From: Escherichia coli
GTDB taxonomy: Bacteria; Pseudomonadota; Gammaproteobacteria; Enterobacterales; Enterobacteriaceae
Direction: 5' to 3' (one strand)
NCBI RefSeq assembly: GCF_003790525.1
Contig: NZ_CP033633.1
DNA length: 64,000 nt
The translations under genes and the position numbers were made by a program. Below the pieces are notes generated by a model. It saw only the letters and a list, made by a program, of their open reading frames with translations. It had not been told where the DNA came from and searched no databases. Positions 41,745 to 51,850 of the stretch are shown here, in pieces (the stretch's first letter is position 1; each line of letters begins with the position of its first letter).

Positions 41745-42300
41745 CTTCGGCTCCCGGCTGCCTGGCGGCATCCGGTCGTCAGGCCCGACTCCGACAGGCA
41801 GCTGCTGGCGCACCCGCCAGTCTCCGCCGAACCCGCTGGCGCGGTTTCGGGCTGTCGCTACGGTCCGATGCGTGAAAACCCGGGCTTGCAGCGACCGTTC
41901 CGGTCGCGCCGCCTCTGTCGCGCCGTGACCTGCGCTCCCTGCACACCTGACGGTGTGTGAGGAAACTGCGCCTGATGGCGCAGCAGTCTTCCCTCCTGCC
42001 GCCACCTCTGCGGCCTGTTTCCCGCTGTGGACTTTCCGGGGGGCAGACGTAACCCCCTCCCGTTCCATCTGTCCAGGGTGAGATGCACCGGCCACAAAAT
42101 TTTTAGCCATGAACCCGGCTAAAAATTTTGCGTCCGCCCCCGGACAGCTGTCCCGTGAGGCGGTAAACGGGCCCCCATCGGAAAGGTCCACTGCGGGGAG
42201 AAACCCCTGTGAAGTGGACGGCAGGAGGAGCTTTCGCTCCTCTGAAGGGGCACATGAACGTCCCGTCGCCGGTATCCGGTTTATCTCACATCTTTCAGTC
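41745..42300 (+). repeat. structured non-coding repeat, family B copy 1 (ssi/Frpo-like candidate) upstream of ssb
   Basis: ~555 bp GC-rich, many internal palindromes; paralogous to 48098-48640 and 51470-51850. Confidence 0.6.
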
Positions 42301-42311
42301 AGGAGGTTCTT

Positions 42312-42839
42312 ATGAGTGCACGTGGTATCAACAAGGTCATCCTCGTCGGGCGTCTGGGCAATGATCCGGAAGTCCGTTACATCCCCAACGGGGGCGCAGT
42401 GGCAAACCTGCAGGTGGCCACGTCAGAAAGCTGGCGCGACAAACAGACGGGGGAGATGCGGGAGCAGACGGAATGGCACCGCGTGGTGCTGTTCGGCAAG
42501 CTCGCGGAAGTGGCAGGTGAATATCTGCGCAAGGGCGCGCAGGTCTACATCGAGGGGCAACTCCGTACCCGTAGCTGGGAAGATAACGGTATCACCCGTT
42601 ACGTCACTGAAATTCTTGTTAAGACCACGGGCACCATGCAGATGCTGGGGAGTGCACCACAGCAGAACGCTCAGGCGCAACCGAAGCCTCAGCAGAATGG
42701 GCAGCCACAGAGTGCTGACGCGACGAAAAAAGGTGGCGCGAAAACGAAAGGCCGTGGACGTAAGGCCGCGCAGCCCGAGTCTCAGCCGCAACCGCCGGAG
42801 GGGGAGGATTACGGGTTTTCAGACGATATCCCGTTCTGA
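42312..42839 (+). CDS. ssb: plasmid single-stranded DNA-binding protein
   Basis: 175 aa; OB-fold N-terminus, Gln/Pro-rich linker, acidic tail ...DDIPF. Confidence 0.9.
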
Positions 42840-42896
42840 CTGGCCTGACTGTGATAACCGCCCCGCCCTGCGCGGGGCATCACCGGAGATATGAGG

Positions 42897-43130
42897 ATGA
42901 GCGAATATTTCAGAATACTTCAGGGACTGCCTGACGGTCCTTTTACCCGCAAACAGGCCGAAGCCGTTGCCGCACAGTACCGGAACGTCTTTATCGAGGA
43001 TGACCACGGAGAACATTTTCGCCTGGTTGTCCGTAATAACGGAACAATGGTCTGGCGTACCTGGAATTTTGAGGACGGTGCCGGGTACTGGATGAACCAT
43101 GTCATCCGGGATTTCGGCATTCTTAAGTAA
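42897..43130 (+). CDS. hypothetical leading-region protein
   Basis: 77-aa [19 protein letters not shown]... between ssb and the ParB-like gene. Confidence 0.5.
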
Positions 43131-43193
43131 GAGAGGTGCCGGACGGGAACGCGTCCGGCAGACATACAACCATCCCGGTCAAAGGAGAAATAT

Positions 43194-45151
43194 ATGTCAG
43201 TTACAGAGTCTAAGACAAAAACGGAGCGTAAATCCAGCCGTAAACCTGCAAAAACGCAGGAAACTGCACTGTCTGCCCTGCTGGCGCAGACGGAGGAAGT
43301 GAGCGTGCCGCTGGATTCACTGATTAAATCACCGCTGAATGTGCGCACGGTGCCGTATTCTGCGGAGTCCGTCAGTGAACTGGCTGATTCCATTAAGGGA
43401 GTCGGCCTGCTGCAGAATCTGGTTGTTCATGCCCTGCCAGGTGACCGTTACGGTGTCGCCGCAGGTGGTCGCCGACTGGCAGCACTCAACATGCTGGCAG
43501 AGCGTGACATCATTCAGGCTGACTGGCCTGTCCGCGTGAAAATTATTCCGCAGGAGCTGGCGACGGCTGCATCGATGACCGAGAACGGTCATCGTCGGGA
43601 TATGCACCCTGCCGAACAGATTGCCGGATTCCGCGCAATGGCGCAGGAAGGCAAAACACCTGCGCAAATCGGTGATTTGCTGGGCTATTCACCCCGCCAT
43701 GTCCAGCGAATGCTGAAACTGGCTGACCTTGCGCCTGTCATCCTCGATGCGCTGGCAGAAGACCGCATCACCACCGAACACTGTCAGGCGCTGGCGCTGG
43801 AGAACGACACCGCGCGTCAGGTGCAGGTGTTTGAAGCCGCCTGCCAGTCAGGATGGGGTGGAAAACCGGATGTGCGGGTTATCCGCAACCTGATTACGGA
43901 AAGTGAAGTGGCGGTGAAGGACAACACTAAATTTCGCTTTGTGGGGGCTGATGCTTTCTCGCCTGACGAACTGCGCACCGATTTGTTCAGCGATGACGGG
44001 GACGGTTATGTCGACCGCGTGGCGCTCGATGCCGCCCTGCTGGAAAAACTCCAGGTTGTTGCAGAGTCCCTTCGGGAAGCAGAAGGCTGGGAATGGTGCG
44101 CCGGGCGCATGGAGCCAGTCGGTGAGTGCCGTGAGGATGCCGGAACATACCGCTGTCTGCCGGAGCCGGAAGCGGTGCTGACGGAGGCGGAAGAAGAACG
44201 CCTGAACGAACTGATGACGCGTTACGACGCGCTGGAAAACCAGTGTGAGGAATCCGACCTGCTGGAAGCAGAAATGAAGCTGATGCGCTGCATGGCGAAG
44301 GTCAGAGCGTGGACGCCGGAGATACGTGCCGGAAGCGGTGTGGTGGTGTCCTGGCGTTATGGCAACGTATGTGTCCAGCGTGGTGTGCAGTTGCGCAGTG
44401 AAGATGACGCGACTGACGACGCTGACCGCACGGAACAGGTGCAGGAGAAAGCGTCAGTGGAGGAAATCAGTCTGCCACTGCTGACGAAAATGTCTTCCGA
44501 ACGCACGCTGGCAGTCCAGGCGGCACTGATGCAGCAACCGGACAAATCCCTGACACTGCTGGCATGGACGCTCTGCCTGAATGTGTTTGGCAGCGGAGCG
44601 TACAGTAAACCAGCACAAATCAGCCTGGAATGTAAACATTATTCGCTGACCAGCGATGCGCCGTCAGGGAAGGAAGGTGCCGCATTCATGGCGCTGATGG
44701 CAGAAAAAGCCCGTCTTGCGGCCCTGTACCGGAGGGATGGTCACGGGACATGACGACATTCCTTTCACTCAGTCAGGAGGTGCTGTTATCCCTGCTCAGT
44801 TTCTGCACCGCGTGCAGCATCCACGGCGTTCAGACCCGCGAGTGTGGTCACACGTCACGCAGCCCGCTGGACACGCTGGAGAGCGCCATCGGTTTTCACA
44901 TGCGCGACTGGTGGCAGCCGACAAAAGCAAACTTCTTCGGACACCTGAAAAAGCCGCAGATTATCGCAGCCCTGAATGAGGCAGGACTGTCCGGTGCCGC
45001 ACGGGACGCGGAGAAGATGAAGAAAGGCGATGCGGCTGAACATGCAGAGTTCCATATGAAAGACAACCGCTGGGTGCCTGGCTGGATGTGTGCACCACGT
45101 CCACAGACGGATACCACTGAACGCACTGATAACCTGGCTGATGCCGCCTGA
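43194..45151 (+). pseudogene. ParB-like nuclease-domain protein (leading-region ParB/YubM-like) split by a frameshift near 44750
   Basis: ORFs 43194-44753 (519 aa, ParB/Srx-like motif ...VAAGGRRLAAL...) and 44750-45151 (133 aa) together span the ~650 aa expected. Confidence 0.65.
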
Positions 45152-45202
45152 TGAACAACCACACCGCCCCGCCGGAGACGGGGCGGCAGCAAGGGAGATA
45201 CC

Positions 45203-50743: not shown

Positions 50744-50761
50744 CAGCAGGGGCAGAGCAGT

Positions 50762-50992
50762 ATGACTATTGCAGAACGTCTTATACAGAAAGGTTTCGAC
50801 GAAGGTTTTAAAGAAAGTTTTAAAGAAAGTTTTAAAGAAGGCTTTAAAGAAGGCTTTAAAGAAGGGGCGCTTGAAGTGGCGCGGGAAATAGCCTGCCGGC
50901 TGCGGGATATAGGCTGGCCGCCGGAACGGATTCAGGAGGTCACGGGACTTTCCGGTGAAGAACTGAAAAAGCTGTTTCCTGATGAGCAGTAG
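50762..50992 (+). CDS. stand-alone Rpn C-terminal-tail paralogue (orphan RpnS-like cassette 2) with FKE[SG] repeats
   Basis: 76 aa MTIAERLIQKGFDEGFKESFKESFKEGFKEGFKEGALEVAREIACRLRDIGWPPERIQEVTGLSGEELKKLFPDEQ. Confidence 0.5.
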   Translation: MTIAERLIQKGFDEGFKESFKESFKEGFKEGFKEGALEVAREIACRLRDIGWPPERIQEVTGLSGEELKKLFPDEQ

Positions 50993-51022
50993 CCTGGCAT
51001 TCAGCCAGGCTGTGAATCATGC

Positions 51023-51274
51023 TCACACATCCTCTGCCGTTTCCCCCAGTTCATTTTCCAGACGCCTGATGATATCTGCCTTACGCATCCCCTGCATGTG
51101 AGGCAGCAGGTCACGGACTGAAAGAGCCTGGGTGGTCCTCCAGACGGTGACGTCCACCTGTTCCGCATTTTCCCAGGCGTGCCATGTTCTCTGCGTCACG
51201 CCAAATTCTCTGGCCGCTTTTTCGCGTGACCAGAGCATGCTTTTTCGCCAGATTCGCAGTTCCCAGCCGGTCAT
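51023..51274 (-). CDS. small putative DNA-binding regulator (HTH-like), antisense to the leading-region block
   Basis: 83-aa ORF; promoter-side intergenic region carries GTGAA-N5-TTCAC palindromes. Confidence 0.4.
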   Translation of the reverse strand: MTGWELRIWRKSMLWSREKAAREFGVTQRTWHAWENAEQVDVTVWRTTQALSVRDLLPHMQGMRKADIIRRLENELGETAEDV

Positions 51275-51291
51275 AAAACACCTTTGAAAAA

Positions 51292-51374
51292 GTGAAAAAA
51301 CTTCACTTTATTTTATCACCATAATTGCCAAATCAGCGCGATAAATAAGTGTGAAAAAAGTGAAGAAATTTCAC
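51292..51374. promoter_or_regulatory. two 15-bp palindromes GTGAA-N5-TTCAC (51292-51306, 51360-51374): candidate operator pair
   Basis: gtgaaaaaacttcac and gtgaagaaatttcac, plus extra GTGAA half-site at 51351. Confidence 0.45.
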
Positions 51375-51469
51375 TTTTTTTGGTTGCAGATGTCGTGCGG
51401 TTTTCTCTGTTTTCACCTGTGCGGGAGTGGTGCGCCAGTGACCACAGCATGCCGTTGTTGTGCCGTCGG

Positions 51470-51850
51470 TTTTCTCCGGTCGCGCCGGATGCGGCGCTCC
51501 CTGCACACCTGACGGTGTGTAAGGCCACTGCGCCTGATGGCGCAGCTGTCTCTGCCTGTCTGCCGCCGCACTGCGGCCCGTTCTCCGCAGACGAACTTTC
51601 CGGGGGTACATACACGACCACATCCCGTTTCAGTCGTCCAGGGGAGAGATGTACCAGCCACAAAACTTTTTGCCGCAGGCGTCAAAAACTTTTGCGTCTG
51701 CCCCCGGACAACTGCCCCGTGACGTGGTGAGCGTCCCCCGTCGGAAAGGTCCACTGCGGGGAAATCCCCGAAGACCCGGACGGCAGAAGGAGCTTCGCTC
51801 CTCCGGGAAATGACCTGGCTGACCCGGCAGTCGTGACGATGAGGAGACAA
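51470..51850 (+). repeat. structured non-coding repeat, family B copy 3 (5'-truncated)
   Basis: Collinear with the 3' ~380 bp of 48098-48640. Confidence 0.55.

Follow-up and report, generated by a model that had tools for sequence, protein, structure and literature searches.

Introduction

The closest described relatives of the elements treated here are ssi1-3 of the IncI1 plasmid ColIb-P9, single-strand initiation (ssi) sites whose description is credited to Bates et al. 1999 by the papers that cite it; according to citing papers as well, the activity of ssi3 needs secondary structure (Nasim et al. 2004). They are named Frpo1-3 by Samuel et al. 2024, and they are the class 1 single-stranded DNA (ssDNA) promoters of Wen et al. 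2025, who worked on the plasmid pESBL. In the current work, we analysed a 64,000-nt stretch of Escherichia coli DNA (NZ_CP033633.1, assembly GCF_003790525.1), hereafter the window, in which a first-pass annotation had picked out three similar GC-rich blocks ahead of ssb and two other genes, and had taken them for single-strand promoters of this kind.

Functional knowledge of such elements comes from several plasmids. The F plasmid carries Frpo1 (ssiD) and Frpo2 (Masai and Arai 1997; Couturier et al. 2023), also known as ssp1a and ssp1b, and early expression from F in vivo requires both (Couturier et al. 2023). More than 13,000 homologues were reported by Samuel et al. 2024 (PMC11541004), in whose experiments a Frpo2 fragment with the upper hairpin alone gave an anti-CRISPR effect that depended on strand and position. 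Six ssDNA promoters were described in the IncI1 plasmid pESBL (Wen et al. 2025, PMC12672017), with the class 1 members (ssi1-3) being active; induction reached up to ~500-fold at 15 min, and the starts were mapped by 5' rapid amplification of cDNA ends (5' RACE). Finally, transcripts from ssp1/Frpo prime complementary-strand synthesis in vivo (Fraikin et al. 2026, bioRxiv 10.64898/2026.01.09.698686).

We find that the three blocks are very probably class 1 ssDNA promoters (ssi1-3; Frpo-type; ssp1) in the leading region of a conjugative plasmid of the IncI complex (IncK2/Z-like). They are already described elements, and there is nothing new in their identity.

Relationship to the described elements

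The window was compared by BLAST with five published sequences, namely ColIb-P9 Frpo1-3, F ssiD and F ssiE (Samuel et al. 2024, Supplementary file 4). On the minus strand, the core of the block ahead of ssb (copy A, 41915–42245) is 99.7% identical to ColIb-P9 Frpo3 (ssi3), and that of the block nearest to oriT, ahead of a DUF4942 gene (copy C, 51479–51805), is 98.8% identical to ColIb-P9 Frpo1 (ssi1). The core of the middle block (copy B, 48268–48595), which lies ahead of a gene for a 144-aa protein, is 88.8% identical to ColIb-P9 Frpo2 (ssi2) and 87.3% to Frpo1. The matches to ColIb-P9 Frpo1-3 have E values between 1e-120 and 1e-172. Against F ssiD (Frpo), each of the three copies is 74–75% identical over the central 80–135 nt, and F ssiE gave no BLAST match to the window. 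A comparison with published Frpo/ssi sequences had been proposed as a check by the first-pass annotation, and its outcome favours the proposal, both for the ColIb-P9 elements and, at ~74%, for the central part of F ssiD.

Copy B is best described as an ssi2/Frpo2-type mosaic. In its hairpin, the tip helix and bulge match the ssi1 type exactly, the flanks belong to the ssi2 type, and the spacer and bubble segments on both arms resemble the F type. This patchwork points to gene conversion between paralogues.

The resemblance to ColIb-P9 extends beyond sequence, to the order of the elements relative to oriT, their strand, the ssb-psiB-psiA operon behind ssi3 and the predicted hairpin; one difference is that ssi1-3 of ColIb-P9 sit on an IncI1 plasmid, whereas the host plasmid here is IncK2/Z-like. 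F Frpo1 and Frpo2 share the leading-region position and orientation as well as the long hairpin, and F Frpo2 also lies ahead of ssb. The central 130 nt, comprising the A/T-rich tip, the unpaired bulge and the CCCTGGAC/GTCCGGGGG helix, are ~74–80% identical between F Frpo and the copies, but the lower stems could not be aligned by BLAST, and the 5' arm of F Frpo reads TTGAGA-17-CATCAC at a place where the copies have GTGGAC and weak hexamers. On the F side, the 1991 ssiD record D90178 reads GGGGCATACTGCC, while the complete F plasmid NC_002483.1 (13657–14004) reads GGGGCATCACTGCC. Because the complete sequence differs from the older record and agrees with Frpo2, the CATACT -10-like hexamer of D90178 may be a sequencing error. 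A scan of genome contigs (298 Gb) for GTCCGGGGG-N50-80-CCCTGGAC proved too permissive, returning chance matches in GC-rich genomes (Streptomyces and metagenome-assembled genomes), and was not used.

Within the window, the direct-repeat search and the three-way alignment agree on three co-oriented homologous blocks, each ahead of a plus-strand gene. There are exactly three copies, and two core motifs of 20–22 nt occur three times each, against 0 expected from shuffles. The direct-repeat search returned a 298-nt pair (41745–42042 and 48098–48395, 93%) together with shorter families in common with 51476–51727, and the homology of A, B and C is co-linear in the alignment. A and B are homologous over 41745–42245 and 48098–48595, with 96% identity in the first 170 nt and 82% in the 330-nt core; C consists of the 327-nt core only, 79–87% identical to the other copies. 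The description of three highly similar blocks is thus borne out, with trimmed boundaries. The blocks had been said to end a few bp before the genes; in fact the repeats stop 50–66 nt before them, and the three-way alignment shows no conservation between the copies over the final 45–65 nt ahead of the start codons (42246–42311, 48596–48646 and 51806–51854).

The blocks are GC-rich, as had been stated (63–67% GC), and the palindromes quoted in the first-pass annotation are all present, though not each in every copy. CTGCGCC-TGAT-GGCGCAG is found at 41966, 48319 and 51528, and GCGACCG-TTC-CGGTCGC only at 41891 and 48244. GGAGC-TTTC-GCTCC occurs in A (42227), its counterparts being GGGGC-TTTC-GCCCC in B, a compensated change, and GGAGC-TTC-GCTCC in C.

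Transferred strand and hairpin

The region matches thousands of enterobacterial conjugative plasmids, with the best match, NZ_CP029742.1, typed as IncK2/Z; matches of the window comprise IncI-gamma/K1 and IncK2/Z plasmids with nikA/nikB downstream. In the closely related pIFM3804 (IncI-gamma/K1), the order is a klcA-type antirestriction gene, a DUF1380 gene, copy A, ssb, a DUF905 gene, a ParB-like gene, psiB, psiA, ardA, copy B, the 144-aa hypothetical gene, an Rpn nuclease gene, copy C, the DUF4942 gene, nikA and nikB. The oriT core lies on the minus strand at 53261–53311, as an 11-bp inverted repeat (GTAATCGTATA / TATACGATTAC) and then ACATCCTG|TCCCG, and nikA/nikB follow on the plus strand. 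The MOBP nick consensus, YATCCTG|Y, places the predicted nick of the minus strand between 53266 and 53265. Since this nick-type sequence is on the minus strand beside nikA/nikB and the genes are on the plus strand, it is the minus strand that is transferred and that serves as template for the three downstream genes. The predicted nick would leave copy C 1460 nt away, which is within 2 nt of the published coordinate of ColIb-P9 Frpo1 (AJ238399:1459).

A related arrangement was seen in the IncK2/Z plasmid NZ_CP141245.1. There the 144-aa gene is directly preceded, at 5768–6521, by just one copy, an A/B hybrid (90.6% identity to A, 86% to B), and ssb, psiB, psiA and ardA are lacking altogether. 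Homologous recombination between copies A and B would yield exactly this deletion.

The strands were folded as ssDNA, with z-scores taken from dinucleotide shuffles. The minus-strand folds are very stable (-105 kcal/mol and z -9.8 for A, -109.5 and -9.0 for B, -97.7 and -8.4 for C), and each consists of one imperfect hairpin of ~230 nt with small hairpins beside it (41996–42224 in A, 48350–48574 in B, with similar limits in C). The folding of the transferred strand, also suggested as a check in the first-pass annotation, accordingly gives a long, very stable hairpin in all copies. The plus strand folds too (-88 kcal/mol, z -8.5), as is expected of any long inverted repeat; however, the minus strand is more stable by 13–17 kcal/mol and has more G.T pairs, which is the expected signature of selection acting on the minus strand.

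A consensus structure was then derived from an alignment of six sequences, the three copies plus ColIb-P9 Frpo1-3; 96.7% of its cells are paired, compared with 41–48% when the partners are slid. Eleven pairs are changed on both sides, as opposed to 5.8 ± 1.6 in shuffles; the change of GGAGC/GCTCC to GGGGC/GCCCC is one example.

Promoter geometry

From its tip towards its base, the hairpin is built of six parts. An A/T-rich tip helix (GCAAAAnTTTTT / AAAAAnTTTTG) is followed by a bulge of 10–11 nt, GGT[A/G]CATCTC, present on the 3' arm only, and by the helix CCCTGGAC[A/G] / [C/T]TGTCCGGGGG; below come an imperfect duplex of 17–18 nt, a bubble unpaired on both arms and a conserved GC-rich helix of ~24 bp. 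The first three parts, i.e., the tip helix, the bulge and the CCCTGGAC helix, are the only segment common to the ColIb-type, F-type, Serratia and insect-metagenome elements. In A, the bulge (GGTGCATCTCA, 42079–42089, minus strand; equivalents at 48432–48442 in B and 51645–51655 in C) adjoins the tip helix (42092–42131) on one side and the -35-like helix on the other. No pairing of the bulge occurs in the minimum-energy fold of any copy or in the consensus structure, and it is conserved in F-type elements.

The -35-like sequence is TGGACA (5/6) on the 3' arm of copy A (42070–42075, minus strand), with TGGACG as its equivalent at 48422–48427 in B and 51635–51640 in C. This TGGAC(A/G) box (4–5/6) is kept in ColIb-type, F-type, Serratia and insect-metagenome elements and is paired in the consensus structure; it may act as the -35. 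At 17–18 nt below it, in the place of a -10, lies the mismatch bubble, TTACGTCT in A (42045–42052, minus strand), facing 42162–42171 on the 5' arm. By fold and sequence, its equivalents on the minus strand are 48396–48404 with 48513–48522 in B, and 51607–51617 with 51726–51734 in C. In this model, transcription would start near 42175, 48525 and 51738 (plus strand) and would exit the hairpin towards the gene, giving predicted leaders of 120–140 nt.

A strict sigma-70 consensus scan found no promoter on either strand of the three intergenic regions. This fits the absence of a double-strand promoter, and conventional promoters of that sort were not detectable there. The same empty scan also means that the transferred strand has no canonical box pair. 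Thus, of the promoter-like hexamers that had been expected across a stem, the -35-like TGGAC(A/G) box is there, but a canonical -35/-10 is not, and the -10 candidates are weak. Five box options were considered, namely TTGACG in the tip, (T/C)AT(C/T)T of the bulge as a -10, GTGGAC on the 5' arm, TGGAC(A/G) on the 3' arm and the F lower-stem option, and none gives a conserved canonical pair. The exact -35/-10 boxes are, therefore, weakly defined candidates only.

The 170-nt upstream module

In A and B, but not in C, the core is preceded by a module of 170 nt. That of copy A (41745–41914) is a series of short GC-rich hairpins, including the GCGACCG-TTC-CGGTCGC palindrome, and is 96% identical to 48098–48266; the direct-repeat search and the alignment place the module of copy B at 48098–48267. 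It lies outside the published 328-nt ssi. Thus, the view of the blocks as promoters holds for the cores, which match published elements, but not for the first 170 nt of A and B. The fold of the module is moderate (z -2.5 and -3.2) and without strand preference.

The module is widespread: 5000 or more plasmid records, of IncI and IncF plasmids, carry it at an identity of 95% or higher. An F-type Frpo in the Klebsiella IncF plasmid NZ_CP082003.1 is also preceded by it, so that it is joined to ColIb-type and F-type class 1 hairpins alike, while the F plasmid has just its last ~44 nt. We found no description of it in the ssDNA-promoter literature examined. As for its surroundings in NZ_CP082003.1 (9733–12171), a group II intron (ltrA) lies ~600 nt upstream, and the module and the F-type Frpo precede a DUF3560/methyltransferase operon. 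A and B have, in addition, a further common stretch of 77 nt (41565–41641 and 47944–48020, 83% identical) between the preceding stop codons and the module; it holds the GC-rich palindromes GGCAGGC-TGAC-GCCTGCC and CAGCGCC-TGC-GGCGCTG, which have no T-run and hence do not form a classic terminator.

That the module is a separate, portable functional unit and not spacer DNA is a tentative suggestion, to which we give a rather low probability. It would enter the recipient just behind the promoter hairpin, and any polymerase arriving from the operon upstream would have to pass through it. One role could be to shield the promoter from that transcription; alternatively, the module could delay complementary-strand synthesis and so keep the hairpin single-stranded for longer.

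Genes and repeats around the copies

All three genes have a good Shine-Dalgarno sequence, as had been noted in the first-pass annotation: AGGAGG for the gene starting at 42312, AAGGAG for 48647 and GAGGAG for 51855. Copy A is followed on the plus strand by ssb (42312–42839, from the list of open reading frames (ORFs) and the annotation of a homologous plasmid), the first gene of its operon, in which psiB (45203–45640) and psiA (45637–46356) come after the DUF905 and ParB-like genes, as annotated in the homologous plasmid. Behind copy B is the 144-aa gene (48647–49081, plus strand), whose product matches phrog_1987 (unknown function) and has no Pfam match; a small ORF and then an Rpn-family nuclease gene ending at 50467 come next. 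Behind copy C is the DUF4942 gene (51855–52703, plus strand; Pfam PF13708, E = 1.8e-50), which bears the same PGAP name in related plasmids. The statement that Frpo/ssi elements drive ssb, psiB and ardA-type genes applies here to ssb and psiB, which lie behind A, but not to ardA (47415–47915), which is upstream of copy B and behind a repeat of another family.

This second family, 40123–40441 and 47078–47397 (93% identical), lies directly ahead of the klcA-type antirestriction gene (40460) and of ardA (47415), respectively. At 88% identity it also resembles the sequence ahead of the F antirestriction gene; folding of its minus strand gives z -5.3, and its two members correspond to the published class 2 ssDNA promoters (ssp2). 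The class 2 promoters, ahead of klcA/ardA, and the class 3 promoters, of M.EcoGIX, are the ssp2 and ssp3 of Fraikin et al. 2026 (see also Wen et al. 2025). They share location, strand logic and the long-hairpin principle with the three blocks, but without sequence similarity, and a roadblock to complementary-strand synthesis has been reported for class 2 only among these classes.

Several other features were observed in the vicinity. A 12-nt tandem repeat, GGAATACAGCAG, in ~8 copies (50246–50373) is translated into QQGI repeats close to the C-terminal end of the Rpn-family protein, and two short ORFs after this gene (50467–50992) repeat the C-terminal Rpn segment (MTIAERLEQ...). Two similar A/T-rich palindromes, AAGTGAAAAAACTTCACTT and AAGTGAAGAAATTTCACTT, lie at 51286–51380, between a divergent HTH regulator gene (51023–51274, minus strand) and copy C, and may be operator sites. 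Just beyond nikB, positions 57657–57743 match the ALIL pseudoknot of Rfam (63.8 bits, which exceeds the gathering score); as IS3-family transposases use this pseudoknot as their frameshift signal, an insertion sequence is indicated there.

Discussion

The assignment of the three blocks to the ssDNA promoters rests, in this analysis, on homology, strand, hairpin, compensatory changes and the lack of a detected double-strand promoter. The proposal of the first-pass annotation that they are single-strand promoters is supported by the homology, by the fold of the transferred strand and by the empty scan for double-strand promoters. What the literature supplies is transcription from ssDNA, zygotic induction and priming. 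Sigma-70 transcription from ssDNA and zygotic induction were reported for the near-identical ColIb-P9/pESBL elements and for the F homologues, and by analogy they are presumed to apply here.

The following mechanism is proposed. The minus strand would be nicked at oriT (~53266) and enter the recipient 5' end first, bringing in copy C after ~1.5 kb, B after ~4.7 kb and A after ~11 kb. Before the complementary strand is made, each element would fold on itself into the imperfect hairpin of ~230 nt, which would mimic a double-stranded promoter for host sigma-70 RNA polymerase. The mimic would be laid out with the A/T-rich tip helix as an UP-like part, the 10-nt bulge, the -35-like TGGAC(A/G) duplex and a spacer of 17–18 bp, followed by a pre-melted bubble in the -10 place and the GC-rich helix of ~24 bp downstream. 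With the transferred strand as template, transcription would head towards oriT and give an early, transient burst of ssb-psiB-psiA (from A), the 144-aa and Rpn genes (from B) and the DUF4942 gene (from C). Synthesis of the complementary strand would iron out the hairpin, and the promoter would be lost; the same transcripts may prime that synthesis.

Several observations weigh against this interpretation. The transferred strand lacks a canonical -35/-10 pair, and the -10 candidates match TATAAT at only 2–3/6 positions and vary between the copies. Copy B is only 89% identical to any published element, and the lower stem of copy C is partly disrupted and weaker than those of A and B. The covariation was drawn from six sequences that include two nearly identical pairs, and it is these sequences that also gave the structure. 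Lastly, the mirror image fits the geometry equally well: here the -35 would be GTGGAC on the 5' arm, which is homologous to F TTGAGA and 17 nt from the bubble, and transcription would run up and around the loop.

Between the two arms, we prefer the 3'-arm reading, because its box is within the one segment that the F and ColIb types both retain and because the A/T-rich tip then falls at the place of an UP element. It is also preferred since the functional Frpo2-acrIIA4 construct (PMC11541004) stops short of the sequence with which the 5'-arm box would pair. The non-template arm, the exact boxes and the transcription start are inferred.

Other explanations for the blocks differ in what they make of the same data. 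Were the blocks coding, the long antisense ORFs across them (41439–42191, 48032–48529 and 51413–51850) would be real genes, to which we assign next to no probability. RefSeq/PGAP annotates the ORF of copy B as a hypothetical protein, but leaves the same region unannotated in other plasmids; and although the stop-free run in A, at 293 codons, exceeds 99% of dinucleotide-preserving shuffles, the ORF lengths in B and C are inside the shuffle range. Moreover, indels between A and B are all non-multiples of 3, as are nearly all those between the other pairs, substitutions between A and B are spread evenly over the codon positions (45/48/43, p = 0.87), and no NCBIfam or PHROG match was obtained. With no coding signal in indels, codon positions or family matches, the antisense ORFs were rejected as genes, in line with the first-pass annotation, which had regarded them as artefacts.

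The blocks might instead be mainly priming signals for the complementary strand, i.e., single-strand initiation sites, with gene expression being secondary. This is an added function more than a true rival: the very name ssi derives from a single-strand initiation assay, transcription-dependent early conversion downstream of ssp1/Frpo was reported in vivo for F (bioRxiv 10.64898/2026.01.09.698686), and both roles, priming and expression, have been described (PMC7736820). As the main function, however, priming seems improbable to us, given that every copy lies directly ahead of a co-oriented gene with a good Shine-Dalgarno sequence and that, in the RNA-seq of pESBL, the highest induction is in the operons behind ssi1-3 (PMC12672017). 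More improbable still is a role at the RNA level, whereby the blocks would act as structured 5' leaders or as small RNAs steering the translation or stability of the downstream mRNAs, which would be made from ordinary promoters. The good fold of the plus strand would suit such a role, but any long inverted repeat must fold in this way, and the G.T pairs of the more stable minus strand become C.A mismatches in the mRNA sense. Furthermore, the sigma-70 scan found no upstream double-strand promoter, an Rfam search of the window at 36–58 kb gave no family over the elements, and the homology is to tested ssDNA promoters.

For this window, the outcome amounts to a matter of annotation only: the label ssi1-3 (class 1 ssDNA promoters) should be given to the three blocks, and the antisense hypothetical proteins across them should be dropped. 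The 144-aa, Rpn-family nuclease and DUF4942 genes can be marked as early 'zygotic' genes of unknown role. Since the expression driven by these elements covers SSB, the SOS inhibitor PsiB and probable anti-defence genes, they matter for the spread of antibiotic-resistance plasmids.

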